The notes under the pieces were generated by a model. That model was not told the DNA's origin, searched no databases, and worked only from the letters and a program-made list of their open reading frames with translations. Source: a virus (Duplodnaviria > Heunggongvirae > Uroviricota > Caudoviricetes). From it: a DNA stretch of 22,813 bases. This document shows, one piece after another, positions 1,314-22,388 of this stretch (position 1 is its first letter; each line of letters starts with the position of its first letter). The stretch lies in IMG/VR virus record IMGVR_UViG_3300029517_000085; one strand, given 5' to 3'. A program made the position numbers and the translations under genes.

Positions 1314-1495
1314 ATATACTCGTCATACTTCAAGTTGCATGTGCTGCGTTTGCGTTCGCTCACCCCAGTCACTTACTTATGTAAGCTCCTGGGGATTCAC
1401 TCGCTTGTCGCCTTCCTGCAACTCGAATTATTTAGAGTATATCCATTTATTATCTTTCTGCGCACTTCACGGTGCGCAGATATCTGGAGCATTTG

Positions 1496-3757: not shown

Positions 3758-3769
3758 AAAGCGCCATGT

Positions 3770-3978
<209 letters not shown>

Positions 3979-3990
3979 AGTTAATTGCTC

Positions 3991-5274: not shown

Positions 5275-5310
5275 AGGTTGCTCCGGGCTATGAAATAGAA
5301 AAATGAATCC

Positions 5311-5412
5311 GTTGAAGCCTGCTTTTTTATACTAAGTTGGCATTATAAAAAAGCATTGCTTATCAATTTGTTGCAACGAACAGGTCACTATCAGTCAAAA
5401 TAAAATCATTAT
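5311..5412. other. attL: Prophage attL: bacterial arm + lambda core GCTTTTTTATACTAA (5321-5335) + P' arm with Int arm-type sites
   Basis: Sequence GAAGCCTGCTTTTTTATACTAAGTTGGCATTATAAAAAAGCATTGCTTATCAATTTGTTGCAACGAACAGGTCACTATCAGTCAAAATAAAATCATTATTTG matches the recalled lambda attP P' arm joined to attB. It lies directly next to int. Confidence 0.85.
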
Positions 5413-6479
5413 TTGATTTCAATTTTGTCCCACTCCCTGCCTCTGTCATCACGATACTGTGATGCCATGGTGTCCGACTTATGCCCGAGAAGATGTTGAG
5501 CAAACTTATCGCTTATCTGCTTCTCATAGAGTCTTGCAGACAAACTGCGCAACTCGTGAAAGGTAGGCGGATCCCCTTCGAAGGAAAGACCTGATGCTTT
5601 TCGTGCGCGCATAAAATACCTTGATACTGTGCCGGATGAAAGCGGTTCGCGACGAGTAGATGCAATTATGGTTTCTCCGCCAAGAATCTCTTTGCATTTA
5701 TCAAGTGTTTCCTTCATTGATATTCCGAGAGCATCAACATGCAATACTGTTGGGATGGCAATTTTTACGCCTGTTTTGCTTTGCTCGACATAAAGATATC
5801 CATCTACGATATCAGACCACTTCATTTCGCATAAATCACCAACTCGTTGCCCGGTAACAACAGCCAGTTCCATTGCAAGTCTGAGCCAACATGGTGATGA
5901 TTCTGCTGCTTGATAAATTTTCAGGTATTCGTCAGCCGTAAGTCTTGATCTCCTTACCTCTGATTTTGCTGCGCGAGTGGCAGCGACAGGGTTTGTTGTT
6001 ATATGGCCTTCAGCTATTGCCTCTCGGAATGCATCGCTCAGTGTTGATCTGATTAACTTGGCTGACGCCGCCTTGCCCTCGTCTATGTATCCATTGAGCA
6101 TTGCCGCAATTTCTTTTGTGGTGATGTCTTCAAGTGGAGCATCAGGCAGACCCCTCCTTATTGCTTTAATTTTGCTCATGTAATTTATGAGTGTCTTCTG
6201 CTTGATTCCTCTGCTGGCCAGGATTTTTTCGTAGCGATCAAGCCATGAATGTAACGTAACGGAATTATCACTGTTGATTCTCGCTGTCAGAGGCTTGTGT
6301 TTGTGTCCTGAAAATAACTCAATGTTGGCCTGTATAGCTTCAGTGATTGCGATTCGCCTGTCTCTGCCTAATCCAAACTCTTTACCCGTCCTTGGGTCCC
6401 TGTAGCAGTAATATCCATTGTTTCTTATATAAAGGTTAGGGGGTAAATCCCGGCGCTCATGACTTCGCCTTCTTCCCAT
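5409..6479 (-). CDS. int: Lambda-type tyrosine integrase Int (356 aa)
   Basis: Translation MGRRRSHERRDLPPNLYIRNNGYYCYRDPRTGKEFGLGRD... matches recalled lambda Int over its full length. Adjacent to attL. Confidence 0.95.
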   Translation of the reverse strand: MGRRRSHERRDLPPNLYIRNNGYYCYRDPRTGKEFGLGRDRRIAITEAIQANIELFSGHKHKPLTARINSDNSVTLHSWLDRYEKILASRGIKQKTLINYMSKIKAIRRGLPDAPLEDITTKEIAAMLNGYIDEGKAASAKLIRSTLSDAFREAIAEGHITTNPVAATRAAKSEVRRSRLTADEYLKIYQAAESSPCWLRLAMELAVVTGQRVGDLCEMKWSDIVDGYLYVEQSKTGVKIAIPTVLHVDALGISMKETLDKCKEILGGETIIASTRREPLSSGTVSRYFMRARKASGLSFEGDPPTFHELRSLSARLYEKQISDKFAQHLLGHKSDTMASQYRDDRGREWDKIEIK

Positions 6480-6675
6480 TTCTGATCCTCTTCAAAAGGC
6501 TACCTGTTACTGGTCGATTTAAGTCAACCTTTACCGCTGATTCGTGGAACAGATACTCTCTTCCATCCTTAACCGGAGGAGGGAATATCCTGCACTCGCG
6601 TACCCATCGACGAACTGTTTCAAGGCTTCTTGGGCGTCGCTGGCGTGCGTTCCACTCCTGAAGTGTCAAGTACAT
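6457..6675 (-). CDS. xis: Excisionase Xis (72 aa)
   Basis: Translation MYLTLQEWNARQRRPRSLETVRRWVRECRIFPPPVKDGREYLFHESAVKVDLNRP... matches recalled lambda Xis. Overlaps the int start as in lambda. Confidence 0.93.
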   Translation of the reverse strand: MYLTLQEWNARQRRPRSLETVRRWVRECRIFPPPVKDGREYLFHESAVKVDLNRPVTGSLLKRIRNGKKAKS

Positions 6676-6714
6676 CGCAAAGTCTCCGCAATTACACGCA
6701 AGAAAAAACCGCCA

Positions 6715-6882
6715 TCAGGCGGCTTGGTGTTCTTTCAGTTCTTCAATTCGAATATTGGTTACGTCTGCATGTGCTATCTGCGCCCATATCATCCAGTGGT
6801 TATAACAGTCGTTGATGTTCTCTGCTTCGATAACCCTGTTGAATGGCTCTCCATTCCATTCACCTGTGACTCGGAAGTGCAT
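6715..6882 (-). CDS. Small hypothetical protein, lambda orf-55-like (55 aa)
   Basis: Hand-translated minus-strand ORF MHFRVTGEWNGEPFNRVIEAENINDCYNHWMIWAQIAHADVTNIRIEELKEHQAA. Same position and spacing relative to xis as the small ORF in lambda. Below the ORF-track size cut-off. Confidence 0.5.
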   Translation of the reverse strand: MHFRVTGEWNGEPFNRVIEAENINDCYNHWMIWAQIAHADVTNIRIEELKEHQAA

Positions 6883-6965
6883 TTATCATCTCCATAAAAC
6901 AAAACTCGCCGTAGCGAGTTCAGATATAATTTCCACCAAAGGCAGTAGTTGCTTGATGCTAAGAA

Positions 6966-8669: not shown

Positions 8670-8967
8670 TGTAATTTCCTTTTACTTTTTACAAAGCGTT
8701 TAATCATGGCTGATTATCTCTAAGTGTAGTAACAGCCTTGTGCGAAACATGTTACCAAATCGCCATTTCAGTGTATCCGCAGTTAGGCTGCCACTTCAAG
8801 GATTCCTAATTACATGGTACGTAAGCGTAAAATCCCGTTGGTTGGCGGGTAATAACTCTGATCAAATCTCCCTTGTCTTTTGCTCTTACGTATGCAGCTC
8901 TTGTGTATTCAACCCAGGCCTCCAGTTCAGCAATACGCTTACTTCCATCCGAGATAACACCTTCTAC

Positions 8968-9219
8968 TCACGCTGCTCGTTGAGTTTTGATTTTTGCTGT
9001 CTCCAGCTCAACACGCAGTTTCCCCACCGTTAGCGCAATATCCTCGTTCTCCTGGTCGCGGCGTTTGATGTATTGCTGGTTTCTTTCCCGTTCATCCAGC
9101 AGTGTCAGCACAATCGATGGTGTTACCAGCTCATGGAAAAGGTCCGCGTCAAATCCCCAGTTGTCAGGCATTGCCTGCTCTGCCGCTTCACGCAGTGCCT
9201 GAGAGTGAATTACGCTCAC
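8968..9219 (-). CDS. Hypothetical protein (83 aa), acidic with a coiled-coil-like C-terminus
   Basis: ORF whose start overlaps the stop of the upstream TraR-like gene. No family recognised; possibly a remnant of an Ea22-like gene (speculative). Confidence 0.45.
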   Translation of the reverse strand: MSVIHSQALREAAEQAMPDNWGFDADLFHELVTPSIVLTLLDERERNQQYIKRRDQENEDIALTVGKLRVELETAKIKTQRAA

Positions 9220-9437
9220 TTCGAACCTCTCTGTTTACTGATAAGCTCCAGATCTTCCTGGCAACTTGCACAAGTCCGACAACCCTGAACGGCCAGGCGT
9301 CTTAGCTCATCTATGGGATCGCCACACTCACAACAATGAGTGGCAGATACAGCCTGGTGGTTCAGGCGGCGCATTTTTATTGCTGTGTTGCGCTGTAATT
9401 CTTCAATTTCTGATGCTGAATCAATGATGTCTGCCAT
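9216..9437 (-). CDS. DksA/TraR-family C4 zinc-finger protein (73 aa)
   Basis: Two Cys pairs (HCCECGD ... CRTCASC) with spacing typical of TraR/DksA C4 fingers. Common in the lambdoid early-left region. Confidence 0.65.
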   Translation of the reverse strand: MADIIDSASEIEELQRNTAIKMRRLNHQAVSATHCCECGDPIDELRRLAVQGCRTCASCQEDLELISKQRGSK

Positions 9438-9535
9438 CTTCCATTAATCCCTGAATTGTTGGTTAATACGCTTGGGGGTAAATGCGAGCAATAAAAAAGG
9501 AGCCTGTAGCTCCCTGATAATTTTGCTTTTCATGT

Positions 9536-9817
9536 TCATCGTTCCTTAAAGACGCCGTTTAACATGCCGATTGCCAGGCTTAAATGAGTCGGTGTGAATC
9601 CCATCAGCGTTACCGTTTCGCGGTGCTTCTTCAGTACGCTACGGCAAATGTCATCGACGTTTTTATCCGGAAACTGCTGTCTGGCTTTTTTGATTTCAGA
9701 ATTAGCCTGACGGGCAATGCTGCGAAGGGCGTTTTCTTGCTGAGGTGTCATTGAACAAGCCCCATGTCGGCAAGCATAAGCACACAGAATATGAAGCCCG
9801 CTGCCAGAAAAATGCAT
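9536..9817 (-). CDS. Hypothetical early-region protein (93 aa; alternative start at internal Met23, 9751)
   Basis: ORF only. No motif recognised. Confidence 0.4.
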   Translation of the reverse strand: MHFSGSGLHILCAYACRHGACSMTPQQENALRSIARQANSEIKKARQQFPDKNVDDICRSVLKKHRETVTLMGFTPTHLSLAIGMLNGVFKER

Positions 9818-9996
9818 TCAGTGGTTGTCATACCTGGTCTCTCTCATCTGCTTCTGCTTTCGCCACCATCATTTCCAGCTTTTGTGAAAGGGATGCGGCT
9901 AACGTATGAAATTCTTCGTCTGTTTCTACTGGTATTGGCACAAACCTGACTCCAATTTGAGCGAGGCTATGTGCCATCTCGATACACGTTCNNNNN

Positions 9997-10185
9997 NNNN
10001 NNNNNNNNNNNNNNNNNNNNNNNNNNNNNNNNCCGTTTATTATTTATCTCCTCAGCCAGCCGCTGTGCTTTCAGGGGATTTCTGATAACAGAAAGGCCGG
10101 GAAATACCCAGCCTCGCTTTGTAACGGAGTAGACGAAAGTGATCGCACCTACCCGGATATTATCGTGAGGATGCTTCATCGCCAT
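9997..10185 (-). CDS. Lambda orf60a-like small protein; 3' end falls inside the masked N run (9992-10032)
   Basis: N-terminal 51 aa [51 protein letters not shown] match recalled lambda orf60a. The rest is unreadable because of Ns. The end coordinate is inferred from the lambda length. Confidence 0.5.
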
Positions 10186-10856
10186 TGCTCCCCAAATACA
10201 AAACCAATTTCAGCCAGTGCCTCGTCCATTTTTTCGATGAACTCCGGCACCATCTCGTCAAAACTCGCCATGTACTTTTCATCCCGCTCAACCACGACAT
10301 AATGCAGGCCTTCACGCTTCATACGCGGGTCATAGTTGGCAAAGTACCAGGCATCTTTTCGCGTCACCCACATGCTGTACTGCACCTGGGCCATGTAAGC
10401 CGACTTTATGGCCTCGAAACCACCGAGCCGGAACTTCATGAAATCCCGGGAGGTAAACGGGCATTTCAGCTCAAGGCCATTGCCGTCACTGCATAAACCA
10501 TCGGGAGAGCAGGCGGTACGCATACTTTCGTCGCGATAGATGATCGGGGATTCAGTAACATTCACGCCGGAAGTGAATTCAAACAGAGTTCTGGCGTCGT
10601 TCTCGTACTGTTTTCCCCATGCCAGCGCCTTAGCATTAACTTCCGGAGCCACACCGGTGCAAACCTCAGCCAGCAGGGTGTGGAAGTAGGACATTTTCAT
10701 GTCAGGCCACTTTTTTCCGGAGCGGGGTTTTGCTATCACATTGTGAACTTCTGAAGCGGTGATGACGCCGAGCCGTAATTTGTGCCACGCATCATCCCCC
10801 TGTTCGACAGCTCTCACGTCGATTCCGGTACGCTGCAGGATAATGTCCGGTGTCAT
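10176..10856 (-). CDS. exo: Lambda exonuclease (Red alpha), 226 aa
   Basis: Full-length match to recalled lambda Exo ([62 protein letters not shown]...). Confidence 0.95.
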
Positions 10857-11638
10857 GCAGCCACCTTCTGCTCAGTGGCTTTCTGTTTCAGGAATCCAAG
10901 AGCTTTCACTGCTTCGGCCTGTGTCAGTTCTGACGATGCGCGAATGTCGCGGCGAAATATCTGGGAACAGAGCGGCAATAAGTCGTCATCCCATGTTTTA
11001 TCCAGGGCGATCAGCAGAGTGTTAATCTCCTGCATGGTTTCATCGTTTACCGGAGTGATGTCGCGTTCCGGCTGGCGTTCTGCAGTGTATGCGGTATTTT
11101 CGACAATGCGCTCGGCTTCATCCTTGTCATAGATACCAGCAAATCCGAAGGCCAGGCGGGCACACTGAATCATGGCTTTATGCCGTAACATCCGTTTGGG
11201 ATGCGACTGCCACGGCCCCGTGATTTCTCTGCCTTCGCGGGTTTTGAATGGTTCGCGGCGGCATTCATCCATCCACTCGGTAACGCAGATCGGATGATTG
11301 CGGTCTTTGCGGTAAATCCGGCATGTGCAGGATTCATTGTCCTGCTCAAAGTCCATGCCATCAAACTGCTGGTTTTCATTGATGATACGGGACCAGCCAT
11401 CAACGCCCACCACCGGAACGATGCCGTTCTGCTTGTCAGGGAAGGCGTAAATTTCTTTCGTCCACGGATTAAGGCCGTACTGGTTGGCGACGATCAGCAA
11501 TGCGATGAACTGCGCATCGCTGGCATCACCTTTAAATGCCGTCTGGCGAAGAGTGGTGATCAGTTCCTGTGGGTCGACAGAATCCATGCCGACGCGTTCA
11601 GCCAGCTTCCCAGCCAGCGTTGCGAGTGCTGTACTCAT
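10853..11638 (-). CDS. bet: Lambda Bet (Red beta) single-strand annealing protein, 261 aa
   Basis: Full-length match to recalled lambda Bet ([66 protein letters not shown]...). ATGA overlap with exo. Confidence 0.95.
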
Positions 11639-11643
11639 CCGTT

Positions 11644-12060
11644 TTATACCTCTGAATCAATATCAACCTGGTGGTGAGCAATGGTTTCAACCATGTACCG
11701 GATGTGTTCTGCCATGCGCTCCTGAAACTCAACATCGTCATCAAACGCACGGGTAATGGCTTTTTTGCTGGCCCCGTGGCGTTGTAAATGATCGATGCAG
11801 AGTGATTCAAACAGGTGCTGGGGCAGACCTTTTTCCATGTCGTCTGCCAGTTCTGCCTCTTTCTCTTCACGGGCGATCTGCTGGTAGTGACGCGTCCAGC
11901 TCTGAGCCTCAAGACGATCCTGAATGTAATAAGCGTTCATGGCTGAACTCCTGAAATAGCTGTGAAAATATCGCCCGCGAAATGCCGGGCTGATTAGGAA
12001 AACAGGAAAGGAGGTTAGTGAATGCTTTTGCTTGATCTCAGTTTCAGTATTAATATCCAT
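11644..12060 (-). CDS. gam: Lambda Gam (RecBCD inhibitor), 138 aa
   Basis: Match to recalled lambda Gam ([54 protein letters not shown]...). Confidence 0.95.
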
Positions 12061-12158
12061 TTTTTATAAGCGTCGACGGCCTCACGAAACATCTTTTCAT
12101 CGCCAATAAAAGTGGCGATAGTGAATTTAGTCTGGATAGCCATAAGTGTTTGATCCAT
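12015..12158 (-). CDS. kil: Kil (FtsZ-targeting host-killing protein), 47 aa
   Basis: Internal Met43 of the 89-aa ORF gives [47 protein letters not shown], matching recalled lambda Kil. Overlaps the gam 5' end as in lambda. Confidence 0.85.
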
Positions 12159-12291
12159 TTTTTGGGACTCCTGGCTGATTAAGTATGTCGATAAGGCGTT
12201 TCCATCCGTCACGTAATTTACGGGTGATTCGTTCAAGTAAAGATTCGGAAGGGCAGCCAGCAACAGGCCACCCTGCAATGGCATATTGCAT
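12127..12291 (-). CDS. cIII: CIII (FtsH/HflB inhibitor protecting CII), 54 aa
   Basis: Hand translation from the minus-strand ATG at 12289-12291 gives MQYAIAGW... and ends ...YGYPD with stop at 12127-12129. Below the ORF-track size cut-off. Overlaps kil out of frame. Confidence 0.85.
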   Translation of the reverse strand: MQYAIAGWPVAGCPSESLLERITRKLRDGWKRLIDILNQPGVPKNGSNTYGYPD

Positions 12292-12363
12292 GGTGTGCTC
12301 CTTATTTATACATAACGAAAAACGCCTCGAGTGAAGCGTTATTGGTATGCGGTAACGCCGCGC

Positions 12364-12732
12364 TCAGGCGGCTTTGATAGTCATATCATCTGAATCAAAT
12401 ATTCCTGATGTATCGATATCGGTAATTCTTATTCCTTCGCTACCATCCATTGGAGGCCATCCTTCCTGACCATTTCCATCATTCCAGTCGAACTCACACA
12501 CAACACCATATGCATTTAAGTCGCTTGAAATTGCTATAAGCAGAGCATGTTGCGCCAGCATGATTAATACAGCATTTAATACAGAGCCGTGTTTATTGAG
12601 TCGGTATTCAGAGTCTGACCAGAAATTATTAATCTGGTGAAGTTTTTCCTCTGTCATTACGTCATGGTCGATTTCAATTTCCATTGATGCTTTCCAGTCG
12701 TAATCAATGATGTATTTTTTGATGTTTGACAT
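12364..12732 (-). CDS. ea10: Ea10 (Ssb-like early protein), 122 aa
   Basis: Match to recalled lambda Ea10 (MSNIKKYIIDYDWKASMEIEIDHDVMTEEKLHQINNFWSDSEY...). Confidence 0.85.
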   Translation of the reverse strand: MSNIKKYIIDYDWKASMEIEIDHDVMTEEKLHQINNFWSDSEYRLNKHGSVLNAVLIMLAQHALLIAISSDLNAYGVVCEFDWNDGNGQEGWPPMDGSEGIRITDIDTSGIFDSDDMTIKAA

Positions 12733-12914
12733 CTATTCATATCCTCATAGATAAAAAATCGCCCTCACACTGGAGGGCAAAGAAGATTTCCAATAATCAG
12801 AACAAGTCGGCTCCTGTTTAGTTACGAGCGACATTGCTCCGTGTATTCACTCGTTGGAATGAATACACAGTGCAGTGTTTATTCTGTTATTTATGCCAAA
12901 AATAAAGGTCACTA

Positions 12915-13115
12915 TCAGGCAGCTTTGTTGTTCTGTTTACCAAGTTCTCTGGCAATCATTGCCGTCGTTCGTATTGCCCATTTATCGACATATTTCCCAT
13001 CTTCCATTACAGGAAACATTTCTTCAGGCTTAACCATGCATTCCGATTGCAGCTTGCATCCATTGCATCGCTTGAATTGTCCACACCATTGATTTTTATC
13101 AATAGTCGTAGTCAT
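12915..13115 (-). CDS. ral: Ral (restriction alleviation), 66 aa
   Basis: Exact-looking match to recalled lambda Ral (MTTTIDKNQWCGQFKRCNGCKLQSECMVKPEEMFPVMEDGKYVDKWAIRTTAMIARELGKQNNKAA). Confidence 0.93.
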   Translation of the reverse strand: MTTTIDKNQWCGQFKRCNGCKLQSECMVKPEEMFPVMEDGKYVDKWAIRTTAMIARELGKQNNKAA

Positions 13116-13185
13116 ACGGATAGTCCTGGTATTGTTCCATCACATCCTGAGGATGCTCTTCGAACTCTTCAAATTCTTCTTCCAT
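13099..13185 (-). CDS. orf28-like small acidic protein (28 aa)
   Basis: Hand-translated minus-strand ORF MEEEFEEFEEHPQDVMEQYQDYPYDYDY overlapping the ral start, as in lambda. Confidence 0.5.
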   Translation of the reverse strand: MEEEFEEFEEHPQDVMEQYQDYPYDYDY

Positions 13186-13385
13186 ATATCACCTCAAATA
13201 AGTTGTTTGCTGCGAAAGTAAATACGCTTAAGTTACCTGTTATTTATCCCACCAAGTTCCGTATCTATCTATCCAGTTACACCAATCATCGACACTCCAT
13301 TTTGTTGTGTCGCATTTTTGCAACTGGCATGAATATCTACCTTCTTTGTAAAGTCGGCGTTTGACTTTCTTGAGCATGGCTCACC

Positions 13386-13727
13386 TCAATCGTAATAAGC
13401 TGGAATTGATTTTCCGCGTTGCTTCTGGCGGCCTGAGCAAGTCACACCCATTTCACTGCGTGGCTTGCGGTAGTAAATACGGTTCTGTTTACGCTCGACT
13501 TCTTCTGCCTTCTGGCAGCGAAGGCTTCCGAGTGATATTGCTTTTTCAGAAAGGCTTAAACGTTTTCTCGGGGCTTCCTGAACAGGTTCCTCACTGTCTG
13601 TGCCGAAGATCGAATCGATGATGTTGCATATAGCATCACGCTCGATAGCCAGCTTTCTGCGCCGCTCATGACGGCGAGTTTTGGCATTTCCTGCAAATGT
13701 TGATTTCCCGTACACGATTACCGTCAT
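13386..13727 (-). CDS. N: N antiterminator, P22-type arginine-rich motif (113 aa from the ATG at 13727)
   Basis: MTVIVYGKSTFAGNAKTRRHERRRKLAIERD... contains the recalled P22 N ARM GNAKTRRHERRRKLAIER. C-terminal GVTCSGRQKQRGKSIP resembles lambda N. Start chosen at Met29 of the 141-aa ORF (GAGGA SD) because the longer ORF would run into nutL. Confidence 0.88.
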   Translation of the reverse strand: MTVIVYGKSTFAGNAKTRRHERRRKLAIERDAICNIIDSIFGTDSEEPVQEAPRKRLSLSEKAISLGSLRCQKAEEVERKQNRIYYRKPRSEMGVTCSGRQKQRGKSIPAYYD

Positions 13728-13846
13728 GATGTTTTCCTCATGTGAAATGGCTTTGGGGGTGATGTGCCAGATGCTGATCTTCTGGTTGCTGTCGTTGCAG
13801 CTGCAATTCACATCACCGCCAAATCCATCTCGTTTGGTATCTGTTT

Positions 13847-13880
13847 GCGCTTTGTCAGCGCCCCATCGAAGTTAAAGAGC
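13847..13880 (-). promoter_or_regulatory. nutL: nutL: boxB hairpin GCGCUGACAAAGCGC (13847-13861) and boxA-like GCTCTTTAAC (13871-13880) on the transcribed minus strand
   Basis: Minus-strand sequence GGCGCTGACAAAGCGCA matches the recalled P22 boxB-left, consistent with the P22-type ARM in N. It lies ~120 nt upstream of the N start. Confidence 0.75.
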
Positions 13881-14143
13881 CTGCCAATCTGTTCCGTTTG
13901 GCTGCCAGCATCCTGCTGACGGCGATAATAATGAACTAATAGTTCGATATTATCAAGAACTGCAAGTACGAGATTTTGCAACTCTTTAATTTTATTAGAT
14001 AAGTTTTTGATATGTAATGAAATTTATTTTTGCAAAGATTGAAGATTGGTCTGTAGGGGAGAAAGGACTGTATTGCTGGCGTGTTAGTTCGTGGGTTAGC
14101 ACATATGCGGATGTTAAATAGGGGAGGCGAACGTGAGGTAAAG
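13881..14143 (-). promoter_or_regulatory. Probable pL/oL early-left promoter-operator region (exact operators not resolved)
   Basis: Non-coding AT-rich interval between the immunity-operon terminator and nutL. Contains motifs (GAACTGCAAGTACGAG, TTGCAA-containing repeats) resembling those in the cI-cro intergenic region. Positional inference from lambdoid architecture. Confidence 0.4.
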
Positions 14144-14170
14144 AAAACCCGGCGCAGAGGCCGGGTTTTT
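14144..14170 (-). terminator. Intrinsic terminator ending the cI-proximal operon (t_imm analogue); palindromic, potentially bidirectional
   Basis: AAAACCCGGC-GCAGAG-GCCGGGTTTTT: GC-rich 6-bp stem extended by A/U pairs, followed by a U-tract on the minus strand (UUUUCUUUACC) immediately after the stop of the 258-aa gene. Confidence 0.7.
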
Positions 14171-14947
14171 CTAGGCTACCAGAGAGTCAATCCAAGAGTC
14201 TCTGGTATGGAATGGCAACACTCGTGCGGTATCATTAAATAGTAGTGATAGTTGCTGTAGCTCAGGTGTTAACCCATCGCTGTCAACTATTACAAATCTA
14301 TTGTTTATGTCAGGAACGACCTGACTTAAGTCAACAATCTTCCCAACTGTTGAGTGGGCAGTATTCCATCCTTTACTGCTGGCAAGGCTTACCGTAAACC
14401 CGCGTTTTGGTGGTATTAGTCGAGACTCATTCCTTAGCGTTAACGGAACAGTAATGTTATGCCCACTAATACCTTTCACTTTTTCCTTTAAGGCTAGTCG
14501 CTTCCCAAGCCCTGCTGATTTTAAGTAACTGATTACACATTTTTCGAACTTATCGTCTTTGACCTCAGCATACCAATCAGCAGTTTGGGCGGATGCAAGA
14601 ATCCCACCACGAATAACATTTGCAGTTACCTGTCCAACGGACGACTCATCTGCCCACGCAGATATCTCTCCAGAGTCATTTAATGAAATTCCTTGCGAAG
14701 CGAGTGATGACCTGATCAGATCAATTTTCTTTTTAGTCAGGTGGATGCCGCGTGATTCAATATTCATCAATGTATCGCAGTAGTCTGTAACCCTATACTG
14801 ACCACTCATCTCTTGAACGAATACGCTTATCTGCTCACAATCATCGTAGTATGTGAAGGGACTAATAACGCGCAGCAACGTGTCGCTCATTGGGTGGCAT
14901 TCAAACCCGAGCTTAGATATGACTGTTGAACACGTTACATTTCCCAT
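14171..14947 (-). CDS. Hypothetical protein (258 aa; alternative start at Met20, 14890), distal gene of the rex-position cassette
   Basis: ORF on the same strand as cI. Its ATG lies inside the last codons of the upstream gene (…TCATGGGAAATGTAA…), suggesting translational coupling. No TM segments or catalytic motifs recognised. AT-rich. Confidence 0.6.
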   Translation of the reverse strand: MGNVTCSTVISKLGFECHPMSDTLLRVISPFTYYDDCEQISVFVQEMSGQYRVTDYCDTLMNIESRGIHLTKKKIDLIRSSLASQGISLNDSGEISAWADESSVGQVTANVIRGGILASAQTADWYAEVKDDKFEKCVISYLKSAGLGKRLALKEKVKGISGHNITVPLTLRNESRLIPPKRGFTVSLASSKGWNTAHSTVGKIVDLSQVVPDINNRFVIVDSDGLTPELQQLSLLFNDTARVLPFHTRDSWIDSLVA

Positions 14948-15477
14948 GATAGCTGACCTGATTTATCTTGATTCGGTAAAGGTGGGCTGCCTTCATATAT
15001 GATATTAAGCGCCTCGCAAAAATAATTCCAGTAGCCAAAAAAATCATCTGGCTTGATGTTCGTTTCAAGCTTGAGTGCAATTTCTTCCCCAGCTGATTCG
15101 AAGTACATGTGATAGTGAGGACCTCGAGCCACCTCAACAAAATCTGGATGGTGCACTATAGATTTATTACGGTGTGACTTGTTATGCGCAGGGTACGGGT
15201 CAAGCGCGTAAATGCGCCTGTCATGAAGAAACATCACAAATGAAAGCTTCACTATATCCACCCCTTCAACGATAGGAGAACGCCAGTGAAGCATAAATCT
15301 TATGCCTGTGATTGGGTTGCCAATTTCATCAAAAGCTTTGAGATCCAATTTAAACCAGATTGGGGTTCGTCCCTCACTTCCGGTCCACGAAACTCCGCTA
15401 AAAGTTACTTTTTTCAAGCGAGTAATAGCTTGGTCAACCTCTTTCTGGGTAGGCTTAAAGTCGCCTTTTTTAGCCAC
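14935..15477 (-). CDS. Hypothetical protein (180 aa, apparent GTG start), proximal gene of the rex-position cassette
   Basis: ORF starting 98 nt downstream of the cI stop, same strand, with a GGTGA SD-like element 9 nt upstream. His-rich segment HHPDFVEVARGPHYHMYFE. No family recognised. Confidence 0.55.
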   Translation of the reverse strand: MAKKGDFKPTQKEVDQAITRLKKVTFSGVSWTGSEGRTPIWFKLDLKAFDEIGNPITGIRFMLHWRSPIVEGVDIVKLSFVMFLHDRRIYALDPYPAHNKSHRNKSIVHHPDFVEVARGPHYHMYFESAGEEIALKLETNIKPDDFFGYWNYFCEALNIIYEGSPPLPNQDKSGQLSWEM

Positions 15478-15574
15478 TGATTCGTATCACCATGAAAGTT
15501 ATTGTTAATACCTATGCTTCTTGTCACCCAAACGTCTCTTCAGGCCATTGGTTACCAGCTATGTGACGATGAAG

Positions 15575-16282
15575 TCACGAACTTTTAATCCATTCCCTTG
15601 CCTCGATGTCATCTAGGTGGCGAGATTGCTTCAAAATACCAGCCACATACTCCACCTTTGCTACTTGATGATAAGGCAACGTTATTGGCCTGTGGTCTTG
15701 ATTGATGCTTGTAAATTGGTATTCTCCGTCTCTGTCATAGCCAAGAACCTTGATCATGTTGTGCCCTTCAATGGTTCTGACAAACACTTCATCACCTGGG
15801 AATACTTTGGTGTTAGGCTCAATGAGTACATATTCTCCTGATTTAATTCTGGGCCACATGCTGTCTCCTTTTACACGAAGACCAAAGGCATCTGGATCAT
15901 CGCTATAAATCTTGAGCCACCCATCGCGCTCTTCGGTCATCTCGATGGCACCATCAACACCAAGAATTGCCTCACCAACCACGCGCACTAACCCTTTTTT
16001 TAATTTGCCAACAATTGAAAAAGTATCTTCATCATTCGCTCCATTTAACGAAGTGCCGTGCTGAAGCCAAACAACATCAACGTTTAGAAATTTCGCAAGC
16101 GCATTCATTTTTTCCTGGCGTGGTAAAGACTCAGCATTAAACCATTTGCTAACGCCTTTGGACGAAAGAGAAAGGGCACGGGCTATGGCCATTCCCCTAC
16201 CATGTTCATCAAGACCAGCTTCTTTACAGGCTTGCGCTAGCCGCTGGGCGAATTCTTTGCGCACTTTTTCATTCTGAACCAT
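15575..16282 (-). CDS. cI: CI-type prophage repressor (235 aa): N-terminal HTH DNA-binding domain plus C-terminal LexA/S24-like autopeptidase domain
   Basis: HTH-like N-terminus (…GMAIARALSLSSKGVSKWFN…). C-terminal GDSMWPRIKSGEYVLIEP with a downstream Lys, typical of S24 Ser-Lys dyad repressors. Divergent from cro. Not lambda or 434 immunity by recall. Confidence 0.85.
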   Translation of the reverse strand: MVQNEKVRKEFAQRLAQACKEAGLDEHGRGMAIARALSLSSKGVSKWFNAESLPRQEKMNALAKFLNVDVVWLQHGTSLNGANDEDTFSIVGKLKKGLVRVVGEAILGVDGAIEMTEERDGWLKIYSDDPDAFGLRVKGDSMWPRIKSGEYVLIEPNTKVFPGDEVFVRTIEGHNMIKVLGYDRDGEYQFTSINQDHRPITLPYHQVAKVEYVAGILKQSRHLDDIEAREWIKSS

Positions 16283-16360
16283 GAGTACGATACTAAAGCA
16301 CTTGCAAAAACTTTCAGTTCAATCATAAAGCGTACTGAAAGTACGAAAAAGGGTATTCCT
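16283..16360. promoter_or_regulatory. oR/pR/pRM divergent promoter-operator region between cI and cro
   Basis: 78-bp intergenic region containing the inverted repeat CGTACTGAAAGTACG (16331-16345) and the related CTTTCAGT/ACTTGCAA motifs. The cI ATG has no SD, consistent with a leaderless pRM transcript as in lambda. Confidence 0.6.
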
Positions 16361-16588
16361 ATGCAAAATCTTGATGAGCCGATTAAAGGTGTCGGCATCC
16401 CTGAAGTTGCGAAGGCTTGTGGAGTTAGCGAAAGGGCTGTCTATAAGTGGCTCAAAAACGGCTTCCTCCCTAAGACTGAGTTTTTTGGGAAAACTAAATA
16501 CGCATCAAAAATCGAAGAGATTTCTGGTGGCAAATATCAAGCAAGCGAAATGCTTGAAATAAGCAAAAAGAACCTTCTGGCTGCATAA
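16361..16588 (+). CDS. cro: Cro-like HTH regulator (75 aa)
   Basis: Small ORF divergent from cI with the HTH-like segment GIPEVAKACGVSERAVYKWLKNG. Canonical position. Confidence 0.8.
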   Translation: MQNLDEPIKGVGIPEVAKACGVSERAVYKWLKNGFLPKTEFFGKTKYASKIEEISGGKYQASEMLEISKKNLLAA

Positions 16589-16595
16589 GTAACAC

Positions 16596-16630
16596 CGCTC
16601 TTTATCAATCTGCACCGCCGACGACGCGGT
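16596..16630 (+). promoter_or_regulatory. nutR: nutR: boxA CGCTCTTTA (16596-16604) and boxB ACCGCCGACGACGCGGT (16614-16630)
   Basis: boxA matches the consensus. boxB differs by one base from the recalled P22 boxB-right (ACCGCCGACAACGCGGT). Lies between cro and cII as expected. Confidence 0.75.
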
Positions 16631-16641
16631 AACTAATTAAG

Positions 16642-16661
16642 CACTCATCGAAAGATGAGTG
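16642..16661 (+). terminator. Stable hairpin (8-bp stem, GAAA tetraloop), possible tR1-like Rho-dependent terminator element
   Basis: CACTCATC-GAAA-GATGAGTG followed by a weakly U-rich tract, located where tR1 lies in lambda. Function uncertain. Confidence 0.3.
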
Positions 16662-16694
16662 TTAGTGATTATTTACCTATGGGAATAGTAAGAA

Positions 16695-16991
16695 ATGACA
16701 CAAACAAGTTACAGCAAACTATCACAGCGCGACGTTGATCGCGCAGAAACAGATTTACTCATCAACCTGTCAACGCTTACCCAGCGCGGTCTGGCAAAGA
16801 TGATTGGCTGTCATGAATCGAAGATAAGCAGAACAGACTGGAGGTTTATTGCTTCGGTCTTGTGTGCTTTCGGAATGGCATCAGACATCAGTCCGATTAG
16901 TAGGGCTTTTAAGTATGCGCTTGATGAAATCACAAAGAAAAAACGCCCGGCGGCAACCGAGCGTTCTGAACAAATCCAGATGGAATTCTGA
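16695..16991 (+). CDS. cII: CII-like transcriptional activator (98 aa)
   Basis: C-terminus …TKKKRPAATERSEQIQMEF matches the recalled lambda CII C-terminus; the N-terminal part is divergent. Canonical position. Confidence 0.85.
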   Translation: MTQTSYSKLSQRDVDRAETDLLINLSTLTQRGLAKMIGCHESKISRTDWRFIASVLCAFGMASDISPISRAFKYALDEITKKKRPAATERSEQIQMEF

Positions 16992-17023
16992 GGTCATTAC
17001 TGGATCAATCCACAGGAGTCATT

Positions 17024-17923
17024 ATGACAAATACAGCAAAAATACTCAACTTCGGCAGAGGTAACTTTGCCGGACAGGAGCGTAATGTGGCAGATCTCGA
17101 TGATGGTTACGCCAGACTATCAAATATGCTGCTTGAGGCTTATTCGGGCGCAGATCTGACCAAGCGACAGTTTAAAGTGCTGCTTGCCATTCTGCGTAAA
17201 ACCTATGGGTGGAATAAACCAATGGACAGAATCACCGATTCTCAACTTAGCGAGATTACAAAGTTACCTGTCAAACGGTGCAATGAAGCCAAGTTAGAAC
17301 TCGTCAGAATGAATATTATCAAGCAGCAAGGCGGCATGTTTGGACCAAATAAAAACATCTCAGAATGGTGTATCCCTCAAAACGAGGGAAAATCCCCTAA
17401 AACGAGGGATAAAACATCCCTCAAATTGGGGGATTGCTATCCCTCAAAACAGGGGGACACAAAAGACACTATTACAAAAGAAAAAAGAAAAGATTATTCG
17501 TCCGAGAATTCTGGCGAATCCTCTGACCAGCCAGAAAACGATCTTTCTGTGGTTAAACCGGATGCTGCAATTCAGAGCGGCAGTAAGTGGGGAACAGCAG
17601 AAGACCTGACCGCCGCAGAGTGGATGTTTGACATGGTGAAGACCATCGCGCCATCAGCCAGAAAACCGAATTTTGCTGGGTGGGCTAACGATATCCGCCT
17701 GATGCGTGAACGTGACGGACGTAACCACCGCGACATGTGTGTACTGTTCCGCTGGGCATGCCAGGACAACTTCTGGTCCGGTAACGTGCTTAGCCCGGCC
17801 AAACTCCGCGACAAGTGGACCCAGCTCGAAATCAACCGTAACAAGCAACAGGCAGTCGTGACAGCCAGCAAACCAAAACTCGACCTGACAAACACTGACT
17901 GGATTTACGGGGTGGATCTATGA
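17024..17923 (+). CDS. O: Lambda replication initiator O (299 aa)
   Basis: MTNTAKILNFGRGNFAGQERNVADLDDGYARLSNMLLEAYSGADLTKRQFKVLLAILRKTYGWNKP… matches recalled lambda O. Contains the ori iterons. Confidence 0.95.
   Translation: MTNTAKILNFGRGNFAGQERNVADLDDGYARLSNMLLEAYSGADLTKRQFKVLLAILRKTYGWNKPMDRITDSQLSEITKLPVKRCNEAKLELVRMNIIKQQGGMFGPNKNISEWCIPQNEGKSPKTRDKTSLKLGDCYPSKQGDTKDTITKEKRKDYSSENSGESSDQPENDLSVVKPDAAIQSGSKWGTAEDLTAAEWMFDMVKTIAPSARKPNFAGWANDIRLMRERDGRNHRDMCVLFRWACQDNFWSGNVLSPAKLRDKWTQLEINRNKQQAVVTASKPKLDLTNTDWIYGVDL
17372..17500 (+). other. ori: ori-lambda: four ~18-bp O-binding iterons followed by an A/T-rich unwinding region
   Basis: ATCCCTCAAAACGAGGGA, ATCCCCTAAAACGAGGGA, ATCCCTCAAATTGGGGGA and ATCCCTCAAAACAGGGGGA at 17372-17457, then ACAAAAGACACTATTACAAAAGAAAAAAGAAAAGATTATT. 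Confidence 0.9.
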
Positions 17924-18408
17924 AAAACATCGCCGCACAGATGGTTAACTTTGACCGTGAGCAGATGCGTCGGATCGCCAACAACATGCCGGAACAGTAC
18001 GACGAAAAGCCGNNNNNNNNNNTACAGCAGGTAGCGCAGATCATCAACGGTGTGTTCAGCCAGTTACTGGCAACTTTCCCGGCGAGTCTGGCTAACCGTG
18101 ACCAGAACGAACTGAACGAAATCCGCCGCCAGTGGGTTCTGGCTTTCCGGGAAAACGGGATCACCACAATGGAACAGGTTAACGCAGGAATGCGCGTAGC
18201 CCGTCGGCAGAATCGACCATTTCTGCCATCACCCGGGCAGTTTGTTGCATGGTGCCGGGAAGAAGCATCCGTTATCGCCGGACTGCCAAACGTCAGCGAG
18301 CTGGTTGATATGGTTTACGAGTATTGCCGGAAGCGAGGCCTGTATCCGGATGCGGAGTCTTATCCGTGGAAATCAAACGCGCACTACTGGCTGGTTACCA
18401 ACCTGTAA
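17920..18408 (+). CDS. P: Replication protein P, C-terminally truncated (162 aa versus 233 aa recalled for lambda); a 10-nt N run at 18013-18022 masks a few codons
   Basis: MKNIAAQMVNFDREQMRRIANNMPEQYDEKP…SNAHYWLVTNL matches recalled lambda P up to about residue 162, then hits a stop at 18406-18408 where lambda continues (YQNMRANAL…). Confidence 0.8.
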   Translation: MKNIAAQMVNFDREQMRRIANNMPEQYDEKPXXXXQQVAQIINGVFSQLLATFPASLANRDQNELNEIRRQWVLAFRENGITTMEQVNAGMRVARRQNRPFLPSPGQFVAWCREEASVIAGLPNVSELVDMVYEYCRKRGLYPDAESYPWKSNAHYWLVTNL

Positions 18409-18514
18409 AGGGCATGCCAAGCAAGTCGATGCTGCATATGCAAAAGAATGCGCGCTGGAAGGTATGGCGAGAACACAGGTTATCTGGCTGAAAGAGGGGG
18501 TTATTAAGGCGTGA
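18409..18514 (+). pseudogene. 3' remnant of a ybcO-like (DLP12 nin-region) gene fused downstream of truncated P
   Basis: Frame ending at 18514 encodes …[29 protein letters not shown], matching the recalled C-terminus of K-12 YbcO, with no corresponding N-terminal part. Stop overlaps the rusA GTG start (GTGA). Confidence 0.55.
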
Positions 18515-18873
18515 ATACCTACAGCATCACATTACCCTGGCCTCCGAGCAATAATCGCTATTACCGCCATAATCGCGGGCGCACGCACGTCAGCGCAGAG
18601 GGGCAGGCATACCGCGATAACGTCGCCCGAATCATTAAAAACGCAATGCTGGATATCGGCCTGACTATGCCTGTGAAAATCCGCATTGAGTGCCACATGC
18701 CGGATCGCCGTCGCCGTGACCTGGATAATCTGCAAAAAGCCGCTTTTGACGCACTCACTAAAGCAGGTTTCTGGCTGGATGATGCTCAGGTCGTTGATTA
18801 CCGCGTTGTGAAGATGCCTGTTACCAAAGGTGGGAGGCTGGAACTGACCATCACCGAAATGGGGAATGAATGA
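18511..18873 (+). CDS. rusA: RusA Holliday-junction resolvase (120 aa), GTG start
   Basis: [51 protein letters not shown]… matches recalled E. coli DLP12 RusA almost residue for residue. Confidence 0.93.
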
Positions 18874-19010: not shown

Positions 19011-19095
19011 AGTCAGAGATAACAATCAACTAATACTGTTTTGTTGATTTTTGCTTGTAATTGGCGTTCTGGTCTGAGTTTTGTGGAGTAAGTTG

Positions 19096-19473
19096 ATGCG
19101 TGATATTCAGATGGTTCTTGAGCGTTGGGGAGCGTGGGCGGCTAATAATCATGAAGATGTGACCTGGTCGTCCATTGCCGCCGGTTTTAAGGGATTAATT
19201 CCTTCAAAAGTAAAATCTCGCCCACAATGTTGTGACGATGACGCGATGATCATTTGCGGGTGCATGGCCCGTCTGAAAAAGAACAACAGCGATTTGCATG
19301 ATTTATTGGTGGACTATTATGTCGGCGGCATGACTTTTATGGCGCTTGCACGTAAGCATGGGCGATCTGATTGTTGGGTTGGCAGGATGCTTCAGAAAGC
19401 TGAGGGCGTAGTGGAGGGTATGCTGATGGTGTTGGATCTCCGATTGGAGATGGATGCTGATTGTTCGAAATAA
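19096..19473 (+). CDS. Q: Late-gene antiterminator Q (phage 82/DLP12 QuuD-type), ~125 aa from the ATG at 19096
   Basis: [75 protein letters not shown]… matches recalled QuuD. GGAG SD 8 nt upstream of the ATG; the ORF track's TTG start at 19081 is less likely. Confidence 0.88.
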
Positions 19474-19628: not shown

Positions 19629-20153
19629 TTATTGTTTAACCCATAATAATTCATTGACATTGAATCCCAACTTTTGAGCGGTTCGCACATAGTCTGCTTT
19701 TACTTTATCTGGAATAGTTGGGGTCCTTGCCAGAATCCATAGGTATTCTCTGTTCGGACCACTGACAAGAGCATACTTATACTCATCATCCAGTTTGATT
19801 ACATTATAGCCACCATAGAAGGGGCCAAAAAACGAAACCTTCAATGCTGCAGTTTTAGTATCTCCAGTAAAGTATGCTTTACCTTCGCTCTCGCTCCATT
19901 TATTTTTCGTTGGATCGTATCCACGGTTAAGTACACGAATCCCTCCGTCGTTCCGTTTTCCATAAGTAGCGCTGACCTGTTCCAGACCACGTTCGAACCG
20001 GTTCTCGAGGCGAGCTATTTCATACCATTTTCCGAGGTAGCGGTTGGCGTCAAAATTTGTAATCGGCTGCACACCTTTAGGTGGTGTCGGGGCCTTACAT
20101 GCTATAAGAGTGAAAGAGAGTGCAATGCCAGTCAACACAGGCCATAACTTCAT
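19629..20153 (-). CDS. Bacterial lipocalin (Blc-like) outer-membrane lipoprotein, 174 aa; prophage cargo
   Basis: Signal peptide with lipobox (LIAC-K). Lipocalin SCR1 motif YLGKWYEIARLENRFE plus …KVSFFGPFYGGYNVI…YLWILARTP resemble recalled E. coli Blc. Opposite strand to the flanking phage late genes. Confidence 0.8.
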   Translation of the reverse strand: MKLWPVLTGIALSFTLIACKAPTPPKGVQPITNFDANRYLGKWYEIARLENRFERGLEQVSATYGKRNDGGIRVLNRGYDPTKNKWSESEGKAYFTGDTKTAALKVSFFGPFYGGYNVIKLDDEYKYALVSGPNREYLWILARTPTIPDKVKADYVRTAQKLGFNVNELLWVKQ

Positions 20154-20345
20154 AATAAATCCTGTACCTTTGATAGTTGAGAGTAAGTATGAAAGATAGA
20201 TGATTACGACCGATCACTTAAAGAACTTTCATACTATATTAGGAATAGTCCATAACAGAAAAATTGTCAGTGATGACGCCAGAAAGGCAATTTATTCCGT
20301 GCACTACACAGTTTATGTGTTAATGAATTAGTCAAGGGGGAGAAT

Positions 20346-21305
20346 ATGATAAAAAAACCTGTGATTGGAATCAGCGGTTGTTTGGCCGGTTCTGCTGTTC
20401 GTTTTGATGGTGGTCACAAAAGAGCTGACTTTTTAATGGACAAATTAGTGGAATGGGTAACATTCAGACCAGTATGTCCGGAAATGGCTATAGGGCTGCC
20501 AGTTCCGCGTCCTGCTCTACGTCTTGTGCGCTCGACGCAAGGAAATATACGGATGTGTTTCAGCCACGACCAGAATGAGGATGTGACAGAGAGAATGACA
20601 GAGTTTAGTCGTTCTTATATGGACAAATTAAAGGATGTATCGGGGTTTGTGGTTTGTGCTAAATCTCCCAGCTGTGGCATGGAGCGCGTGCGTGTCTATG
20701 ATGAAAATGGTAATCGAGGTCGTAAAGATGGAGTGGGACTATTTACGAGCACTTTGATGGAAAAGTTTTCCTGGCTACCGGTTGAAGAGGATGGGCGATT
20801 ACATGATCCAGTGCTTCGTGAGAATTTTATTGAAAGAGTTTTTGCTTTGCATGAGCTCAATCACCTTTACAAGGAGAAATTATCAAGAAGAGAGTTATTA
20901 GCTTTTCATAGTCGTTATAAGCTTCAGTTGTTGGCGCATAGCCAGGCAGGCTATAAAGATATGGGACCATTTGTGGCTGCAATACACGAGTGGGCGGACC
21001 TTGAATCATACTTTGAGGTGTATCGTGATAAGCTGATGGCGATTCTCAGAAAACCTGCATCACGTAAAAATCACACGAATGTGCTGATGCATATACAGGG
21101 GTATTTTAGTAACTACTTAAGTACACGCCAGCGTAAAGAGTTGAGCGAGGTTATACTTAACTATCGTTCTGGCACATTACCTCTTCTTGCGCCGTTGACT
21201 CTGCTGAAGCATTATCTGGGTGAGTATCCTAATGATTACTTGCTTACACAGAATTACTTCGATCCCTATCCGGACGAACTGGCTCTAAGACTGATGGTAA
21301 ATTAA
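20346..21305 (+). CDS. DUF523/DUF1722-like protein (TudS/YbgA-like, possible Fe-S enzyme), 319 aa; prophage cargo
   Basis: N-terminus KPVIGISGCLAGSAVRFDGGHK and conserved Cys (CPE, CAKSPSCG) resemble the recalled DUF523 (thiouracil desulfidase-like) signature. C-terminal half resembles YbgA-like DUF1722. Family call from motif memory only. Confidence 0.5.
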   Translation: MIKKPVIGISGCLAGSAVRFDGGHKRADFLMDKLVEWVTFRPVCPEMAIGLPVPRPALRLVRSTQGNIRMCFSHDQNEDVTERMTEFSRSYMDKLKDVSGFVVCAKSPSCGMERVRVYDENGNRGRKDGVGLFTSTLMEKFSWLPVEEDGRLHDPVLRENFIERVFALHELNHLYKEKLSRRELLAFHSRYKLQLLAHSQAGYKDMGPFVAAIHEWADLESYFEVYRDKLMAILRKPASRKNHTNVLMHIQGYFSNYLSTRQRKELSEVILNYRSGTLPLLAPLTLLKHYLGEYPNDYLLTQNYFDPYPDELALRLMVN

Positions 21306-21647
21306 TTGTATGCGATATCATCCAAAAGGATGAGTTCCTGCATGCAGGATATTTACAATCGTAAAAACTACACTATGATACCCAGAGTGTCAGTTTGTAT
21401 AAAAACTCTGTTTACGCTGAAGAAACAATTGAGATGCAACTTAAAGTTGGTAAACATGCCAGTCAAAATATATAATATTATGATTCCACGCAGCTATATA
21501 TAATATAACGGATTGGTTTAATAATTTGTCTTTGTGAGTTAAATACATAATTTTATACTTGTGATGCAATGAAATTTTCCTTATTGTTGAACTGGCGAAT
21601 ATTGATTTTCCACCTATACTTACCTGGTGTAACCCCAATGATATCAG

Positions 21648-22388
21648 GTGGATAATATGCCATACATATGTTCTATCATTTTGGTGTTGAACTCGTTTGA
21701 TGTCCGAATTGGTAAAGAAGATATTTTGTTTAAAAAAGGAAGTGCTGTTCTCATTGATTACAATTTAAAAGATTTTTTTTCATCAAATATAGATCATGTA
21801 ATGATCGTAGATGTTGAAGAGAAAACAGTTAATGATTTCTTTAAAAGCAACACACTCTCACCTTTTTCTGTAAGAAGGTTTTATCCGGCATACTTGATGG
21901 TGGAATGTGAAGATTTTTCATTGTTAAAGAACTTGATTGCATGCTTGAATTGTGATGGCAGAACTGTGGATTTTGTTAGAAATCAAATATCACTTGCATG
22001 TCTTGCTATCTTATCTTCAGAGAAAATAGTGCAAAGTTTTTTATTTGGATGTCTTAATGGTTTAGGAAGTAAAGTTAAGGCTATTATTCACACGGATATA
22101 TCTGCAGCATGGAGACTTTGTGATATATCTTCAAGACTGTATCTGAGTGAAAGTCTGTTAAAAAGAAAATTAAAGCACGAAGGCTTATCATTTAGTAAGT
22201 TAATTCTTGAAGAGCGAATGGTGATGGCGGAAAGGTTATTAAGCTACAATTTATATTCTGTTGGAAAAGTTGCTGAGATATGCGGTTATGAAAACACGTC
22301 ATATTTTGTAAGTGTTTTCAGAAGGTATTTTGGTGTTCCTCCCCATCAATATTCATCAAGATTTTTTTTAGAAAAAGACATGATGTAA
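21648..22388 (+). CDS. AraC/XylS-family transcriptional regulator (246 aa), AppY/GadX-like; prophage cargo
   Basis: C-terminal dual HTH signature (…LLKRKLKHEGLSFSKLILEERMVMAERLLSYNLYSVGKVAEICGYENTSYFVSVFRRYFGVPPHQY). Very AT-rich gene and upstream region. Confidence 0.8.
   Translation: MDNMPYICSIILVLNSFDVRIGKEDILFKKGSAVLIDYNLKDFFSSNIDHVMIVDVEEKTVNDFFKSNTLSPFSVRRFYPAYLMVECEDFSLLKNLIACLNCDGRTVDFVRNQISLACLAILSSEKIVQSFLFGCLNGLGSKVKAIIHTDISAAWRLCDISSRLYLSESLLKRKLKHEGLSFSKLILEERMVMAERLLSYNLYSVGKVAEICGYENTSYFVSVFRRYFGVPPHQYSSRFFLEKDMM

Follow-up and report, generated by a model that had tools for sequence, protein, structure and literature searches.

The stretch of DNA analysed here (the window, 22,813 nucleotides) contains a lambdoid prophage of E. 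coli, integrated at the attachment site of lambda, and it carries an N/nut antitermination module of mixed kinship. We hold with high confidence that the specificity determinants of this module, the arginine-rich motif (ARM) of N and both boxB sites, belong to the P22 class, that the C-terminus of N is of the lambda/21 class, and that the module accompanies a 933W-type immunity region on a lambda-like int-xis-red-kil-cIII-ral left arm. The same high confidence extends to the reading of a single A-to-G difference in the nutR boxB loop as private to this prophage, with N binding most likely intact.

The N gene and its product

The N gene lies on the minus strand, and its parts, in window positions or N residues, are as follows.

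13386 to 13727, minus strand: N antiterminator gene, 113 amino acids plus stop (ATG at 13727, TGA at 13386-13388)
13735 to 13739, minus strand: GAGGA ribosome-binding site of N, 7 nt 5' of the N ATG, read from the sequence
13635 to 13688, minus strand: ARM, N codons 14-31, NAKTRRHERRRKLAIERD, identical to residues 14-31 of P22 gp24
N residues 1-42: P22-type (40/42 with P22, 41/42 with an Stx2a phage, 9/42 with lambda)
N residues 43-75: E. coli lineage (29/33 with an Stx2a phage and Lambda_2E9, 12/33 with P22)
N residues 76-113: lambda/phage-21 type (37/38 with HF4s, 27/38 with phage 21, 21/38 with lambda, 5/38 with P22)

The product matches the Pfam family PF25694 N_peptide ('Transcriptional antitermination N peptide') with E=5e-26 and 91.5 bits, the cut-off being 27.9; no NCBIfam model matched it. 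The start can be placed at 13727 because the relatives (P22 gp24, ST64T gp24, the N genes of Stx2a phages, Lambda_2E9 N and RefSeq WP_001504518.1) all begin at MTVI, as does the identical gene of E. coli AMSHJX01, which RefSeq annotates at 342 nt. A 141-residue ORF with a GTG start (13386-13811), present in the program-made list of reading frames, was rejected as the N gene: it is over-extended at its 5' end, the extension lacks conservation, and the relatives start at MTVI. Two plus-strand ORFs lying over N (13361-13621 and 13681-13875) were also rejected, since they are without family support and antisense to a well-supported gene.

A first-pass annotation of this DNA had taken the ARM for that of the P22 N peptide and had remarked that N ends like lambda N. 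Alignment of N to P22 gp24 and to lambda N bears out both the P22-type N-terminus and the lambda/21-type C-terminus. P22 gp24 (BK000583 record) begins MTVITYGKSTFAGNAKTRRHERRRKLAIERDTICNIIDSIFG.. and is 69% identical to the window N across residues 1-75; the ARM, GNAKTRRHERRRKLAIER when counted as residues 13-30, agrees with it at 18 of 18 positions. The likeness does not extend to the last 38 residues, which are unrelated to those of P22 gp24. Lambda N is 34% identical overall, and here it is the other end of the protein that matches: the C-terminal GVTCSGRQKQRGKSIP agrees with the lambda sequence GITCSGRQKIKGKSIP at 13 of 16 positions, and the conserved lambda-type segment ..ERKxxRxxYxKPxxExGxTCSGRQKxxGKSIP is present. 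Since this segment aligns with lambda N in the antitermination complex (6GOV chain N, E=5e-9), the remark on the C-terminus was correct. A PDB sequence search with N returned only this lambda N (6GOV, E=5e-9), most strongly in the C-terminus; the 1A4T peptide was not returned by that search, presumably because its chain is too short.

N itself is a three-part mosaic, with a P22-type ARM end and a lambda/21-type C-terminus. The N of phage HF4s, with which it agrees over residues 76-113, has an ARM of the phage-21 type. The same arrangement is found in the gp24 proteins of ST64T and L, in which a P22-type N-terminal part of about 75 residues precedes a lambda/21-like C-terminus ending QKQRGKSIPAYYD; that of ST64T is 65% identical overall to the window N. 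Unlike the window, ST64T and L have P22-like podovirus backbones. The gp24 proteins of phage L and P22 have their N-terminal 75 residues in common and unrelated C-termini, and they are functionally interchangeable (PMC8022706). Lambda_2E9 N, unlike the window N, has a P22-type short C-terminus (6/38 matches to the window N).

The nut sites and the predicted mode of action

The elements on the two early transcripts, given as window positions, are the following.

13928 to 13956, minus strand: putative pL-like promoter (TTGATA, 17-nt spacer, CATTAT), from a consensus scan and the likeness of the leader
13873 to 13881, minus strand: nutL boxA, GGCTCTTTA / GGCUCUUUA, reaching one base past 13880, where the first-pass annotation had ended the region
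13847 to 13861, minus strand: nutL boxB, GCGCTGACAAAGCGC / GCGCUGACAAAGCGC, 5-bp stem with a GACAA pentaloop, 15/15 against P22
16596 to 16604, plus strand: nutR boxA, CGCTCTTTA / CGCUCUUUA, the same boxA as in P22
16614 to 16630, plus strand: nutR boxB, ACCGCCGACGACGCGGT / ACCGCCGACGACGCGGU, 5-bp stem, C-C closing mismatch and GACGA loop

The leader 3' of the pL-like promoter, ..GTCAGCAGGATGCTGGCAGCCAAACGG.., resembles the pL leaders of lambda and P22, and the pL transcript would start near ..GTCAGCAGGATGCTGG, as in these two phages. In nutL, boxA and boxB are separated by an 11-nt spacer, and a 119-nt leader runs from boxB up to N. The first base of the nutL boxA is a G, whereas the P22 boxA, CGCUCUUUA, has a C there; a nutL boxA beginning with G also occurs in one IMG/VR locus (L014). 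On the plus strand, cro stops at 16588, the nutR boxA begins 8 nt later, and 9 nt separate it from its boxB. Thus the canonical layout, pL-nutL-N on one side and cro-nutR-cII on the other, is kept. Only two boxA-like sites are found in the window, one 5' of each boxB, and the nutL and nutR boxB patterns are each unique in its 22.8 kb, with at most 0.06 matches expected by chance when two mismatches are allowed.

Both boxB sites had been taken for P22 hairpins, with one base difference in the nutR loop, and comparison with the P22 sites (nutL CGCTCTTTAACTTCGATGATGCGCTGACAAAGCGC and nutR CGCTCTTTACCAATCTGAACCGCCGACAACGCGGT in the BK000583 record) confirms this. The nutL boxB is identical to P22 boxB-left. 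The nutR boxB agrees with P22 boxB-right, ACCGCCGACAACGCGGT, at 16 of 17 positions, stem and C-C closing mismatch being identical; the exception is the fourth loop base, 16623, a G in the window and an A in P22 and in all relatives. The spacing is like that of P22 as well. Both RNAs fold as expected: a 5-bp stem with a 5-nt loop at -7.1 kcal/mol is predicted for nutL, and for nutR a fold at -5.9 kcal/mol that stays the same whether A or G stands at 16623. A scan of the window at Rfam gathering thresholds gave no nut or boxB family; its matches were the thermoregulator of lambda cIII and a REP-type sRNA of the host. A terminator-like scan also picked up a 10-bp hairpin with a GAAA loop at 16640-16663 on the plus strand, 10 nt past the nutR boxB and before cII, which by its position may belong to a tR1-equivalent terminator region or to cII regulation.

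The lambda boxB sites, GCCCTGAAGAAGGGC and GCCCTGAAAAAGGGC (NC_001416 record), are clearly unlike those of the window. In the lambda loops, GAAGA and GAAAA, the fourth base is extruded, whereas in P22-type loops it is the third. Because the lambda ARM and boxB loops are unlike the P22 type (only 9 of the first 42 residues of N match), the two represent separate specificity classes. The lambda N/nut system (PDB 6GOV) resembles that of the window in mechanism, in gene order and in the C-terminal segment that binds RNA polymerase (21/38).

How the module acts is inferred from the paradigm of lambda and P22. On this view the nutL and nutR RNAs, each presenting boxA and then a boxB hairpin, would be made from pL and pR. 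N, translated from the pL transcript, would use the arginine-rich helix at its N-terminus to bind the boxB loop. The middle and the C-terminal part of N, acting with the host factors NusA, NusB/S10 (at boxA) and NusG, would then render RNA polymerase resistant to terminators, and the resistant polymerase would allow expression of the delayed-early genes.

The backbone, the extent of the exchange and the state of the prophage

Outside the immunity region the left arm is that of lambda. The DNA is 98.9% identical to lambda over 5321-6930, from exactly the attP core through int and xis, and 96.5% identical over 8921-13210, from ea22 to orf28. The genes int, xis, exo, bet, gam, kil, cIII, ea10 and ral are collinear with those of lambda. 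At the protein level, identity to lambda is 99.2% for Int, 98.6% for Xis, 98.7% for Exo, 99.6% for Bet, 97.1% for Gam, 99.2% for Ea10 and 100% for Kil, CIII, Ral and orf28. The description of exo, bet, gam, kil, cIII, ea10 and ral as lambda-like thus holds, at 97-100% protein identity. The Rfam Lambda_thermo element (12246-12304, minus strand, 88.5 bits) overlaps the cIII start as it does in lambda.

Homology to lambda breaks off at 13210 and is regained at 16930, within cII, and therefore the whole of the intervening block is foreign:

13211 to 16929: non-lambda immunity block, comprising a DUF5484 ORF, N, nutL, pL, a two-gene cassette in the rex position, 933W-type cI and cro, nutR and most of cII

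The first-pass annotation had seen here a clean exchange of modules at the N/nut specificity determinant. A P22-type N/nut set on a lambda backbone is indeed what the comparison finds, but N/nut is not the sole exchanged unit. From cI through oR, cro and cII to O (15512-17929) the DNA is 92% identical to 933W, except for the nutR patch, where 933W reads ..CGCTATTTTCACAATGG..TCGCTGACAAAGCGA.. (L166 3597-3642) and which is replaced in the window. P22-type N/nutL and nutR thus flank a 933W-type repressor and operator set, the layout expected if N, nutL and nutR must be inherited together. A 933W-type immunity region with P22-type N/nut has been recombined into a lambda-like left arm. The classical lambda imm21 hybrid, which the comparison also covered, offers a parallel, as there too N and the two nut sites move together with the immunity region. 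The nutR boxB of 933W itself, TCGCTGACAAAGCGA, has a GACAA loop and a U-A closing pair like P22 boxB-left, on a different stem; this shared loop and closing pair suggests that the 933W-type and P22-type N classes overlap in the loops that they recognize.

Several other elements were noticed in and next to the block. A 45-residue DUF5484 ORF (13240-13377, minus strand, E=7e-11) is found at the left mosaic joint, with orf28/ral on one side and N on the other; lambda has sieB in this place. Between cI and pL, in the position of lambda rexA/rexB, two minus-strand genes (14171-14947 and 14935-15477) encode a 180-residue protein with a weak DUF6978 match and a 258-residue DUF1828 protein. They give weak PADLOC matches to the A and B components of the candidate defence system PDC-M24 (E=1.5e-3 and 6e-7), and the cassette is plausibly a prophage defence or exclusion module. 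A strong hairpin terminator follows it at about 14140-14170.

Positions 1-5320 of the window are host chromosome, with a pectinesterase-family ORF (3991-5274, minus strand) and a REP/naRNA4 element (3852-3922). Since this host sequence adjoins the lambda attP core at the junction 5321, the prophage lies at the lambda attachment site. Towards the right end, gene P (ORF 17920-18408) is fused at 18402-18408 to the sequence just 5' of rusA (18511-18873). As a result the P ORF stops after 162 residues instead of 233, and its match to the Pfam Phage_lambda_P profile covers profile positions 1-124 of 162. About 2.16 kb is missing relative to Lambda_ev087 (L165 2160-4318) and to the IMG/VR locus L004, and with it the P C-terminus, ren, ninB, a Dam-like methyltransferase gene, ninE and ninX. 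The P-rusA junction occurs in one piece in no complete E. coli genome. The deletion resembles those of the nin type, but it truncates P, and the prophage, to judge from its sequence, is probably replication-defective. The truncation of P means that the nut module may no longer be under selection. Further to the right are Q (19081-19473) and, between Q and the holin gene, morons at 19629-22388, which comprise a Blc-like lipocalin gene (minus strand) and genes for a YbgA-like DUF1722/2-thiouracil desulfurase protein and an AraC-type regulator; phage Lambda_ev087 has the same morons. Two runs of N, at 9992-10032 (41 bases, in orf63/orf60a-like genes) and at 18013-18022 (10 bases, in P), give X residues in the translations.

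The same combination is present in sequenced phages and in many E. coli genomes, and the architecture is not new. Phages 1H12, Lambda_ev087, Lambda_2E9 and their relatives have lambda-like red genes, P22-type N/nut and a 933W-type cro, and they match half of the window at about 95% identity. P22-type N/nut with 933W-type cro is also found in the O121 Stx2a phages (LC616031 and others). Against this group (1H12, Lambda_ev087, Lambda_2E9 and the O121 Stx2a phages) nucleotide identity is about 94% for the N-nutL segment and 96-97% for the nutR segment; unlike the window, its members have GACAA in nutR, and their P and nin region are intact. SH2026Stx1 and dozens of O121 Stx2a-converting phages have the N-nutL segment at about 94% identity. 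P22 itself differs from the window in being a Salmonella phage with a P22-like backbone, whereas the window has an E. coli host and a lambda-like backbone.

Among 5,426 complete E. coli genomes, 62 contain at least 80% of the 515-bp N-nutL segment and at least 12 contain it with 100% identity; in some such genomes the gene already bears the RefSeq name 'transcriptional antitermination N peptide'. The nutR pattern recovered 87 IMG/VR loci with the boxA-boxB nutR context. N, cI, Cro and CII are 100% identical to those of the window in four IMG/VR loci (L052, L057, L069 and L092), and IMG/VR also has prophages in which N, Bet, cI and Cro are all 100% identical. Among the 66 IMG/VR loci that have both a P22-type nutR and an N gene, the ARM is exactly NAKTRRHERRRKLAIERD in 51 and a close variant in the rest, and an identical nutL boxB lies at most 260 nt upstream of N in 55. 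This joint occurrence of ARM and boxB across many backbones argues that they form one specificity set. The only new element is the singleton base change in nutR, and its effect is probably small.

The base change in the nutR loop and its meaning

The G at 16623 is the sole difference between the window and E. coli AMSHJX01 over 4.96 kb (12394-17349). The 181-bp nutR segment matches 20 complete E. coli genomes with exactly one mismatch and none perfectly; the G variant is absent from all 5,426 of them. In its nutR context, GACGA was found neither in IMG/VR, nor in 185,579 GTDB representative genomes, nor in JGI metagenomes, and no C or T stands at the equivalent of 16623 in the GTDB representatives. 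In the fixed boxA-stem context, IMG/VR nutR sites comprise at least 120 with GACAA and one with GGCAA, with no variants at loop positions 1, 3 or 5; among IMG/VR nutL sites none has a base other than A at loop position 4. The GGCAA site (L130 1655-1687, IMG/VR UViG_2921806583_000002), an A-to-G change at loop position 2, is the only other P22-type nutR variant found. Since GACGA was met in no collection searched, the nutR change is a private point mutation, a single-base change and not a feature of the lineage. If the prophage is replication-defective, the change could be drift under relaxed selection.

P22 N reportedly needs a GNRA-like loop. GACGA is not the canonical loop sequence, but it still reads GA[C]GA, that is, GNRA. 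In the structure of the P22 N-boxB complex (PDB 1A4T) the loop adopts a GNRA fold from which the C, placed between n3 and n4, is looped out (PMC12550061), and this makes the fourth loop base the purine R of GNRA. Because A-to-G keeps a purine at this position, N binding is most likely intact. Yeast three-hybrid data address the same substitution in boxB-left, in the context of a U-A closing pair. With P22 N, boxB-left carrying GACGA (ugcgcugacGaagcgcg) gave 22,863 luminescence units against 17,363 for the wild type (PMC6023938 Supplementary Data 1), and its authors report slightly enhanced binding (p=0.0079; PMC6023938). In the same study, changes of loop G1 or A5 abolished P22 N binding in both boxB contexts, and the C-C closing mismatch of boxB-right was sensitive to neighbouring changes (PMC6023938). 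The first-pass annotation had suggested that the loop variant could matter for N binding; the difference itself is confirmed, but the boxB-left binding data point to tolerance rather than to a change of specificity. From these data and the GNRA-like fold, we consider that the change is probably tolerated by N and does not alter specificity.

Other readings of the G have to be weighed against this one. The change might be damaging, weakening N-dependent antitermination of rightward transcription as part of the process by which a defective prophage decays or is domesticated. Its absence from IMG/VR, the GTDB representatives, the JGI metagenomes and the complete E. coli genomes would agree with this, as would the near-invariance of the natural P22-type loop in all other cases and the private 2.16-kb deletion that truncates P in the same prophage. 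The position of the change is also striking, given that it is the one difference from AMSHJX01 in 4.96 kb and that a random change would fall within the 10 boxB loop bases with a chance of about 0.2%; when all regulatory elements are counted, however, a lone substitution in some 'interesting' element is not very improbable. Damage is unlikely in view of the boxB-left substitution, which keeps or slightly improves P22 N binding, of the purine retained at the R position, and of the unaltered predicted stability of the hairpin. It is quite unlikely, too, that the G is a sequencing or assembly error and that the true loop is the common GACAA. A singleton found nowhere else, in a window with masked runs of N, invites this explanation, but the surrounding 5 kb are otherwise identical to independent genomes, which indicates good local quality, and single-substitution errors are rare in consensus assemblies.

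The change could instead be of use to the phage, strengthening and so tuning the loading of N at nutR, or changing the interplay with NusA. It does lie exactly inside the recognition loop, and the yeast signal of the boxB-left mutant is slightly above that of the wild type (p=0.0079, PMC6023938). The reported effect is small, however, and the G, which has not spread to other sequenced genomes, occurs in a prophage whose replication gene is truncated; we regard an adaptive role as most improbable. A broader proposal would be that GACAA to GACGA in boxB-right is not neutral but alters N loading or NusA engagement at nutR, and that, with the private nin-like P-rusA deletion, it records one way in which, in nature, the rightward transcription of a lambdoid prophage can lose its N-dependence or have it rewired. 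This we consider very unlikely. A private change tolerated by N remains the preferred reading.

The near-invariance of the natural GACAA loop hints at constraints beyond peptide binding: natural loops hardly vary, yet binding assays tolerate the change to GACGA, and NusA or the assembly of the complex might be what constrains the loop. N is itself modular, with an ARM that acts as a specificity head on an interchangeable tail that binds the polymerase. The prophage as a whole is a textbook illustration of how, in lambdoid phages, the N/nutL/nutR specificity set is exchanged along with the immunity region.
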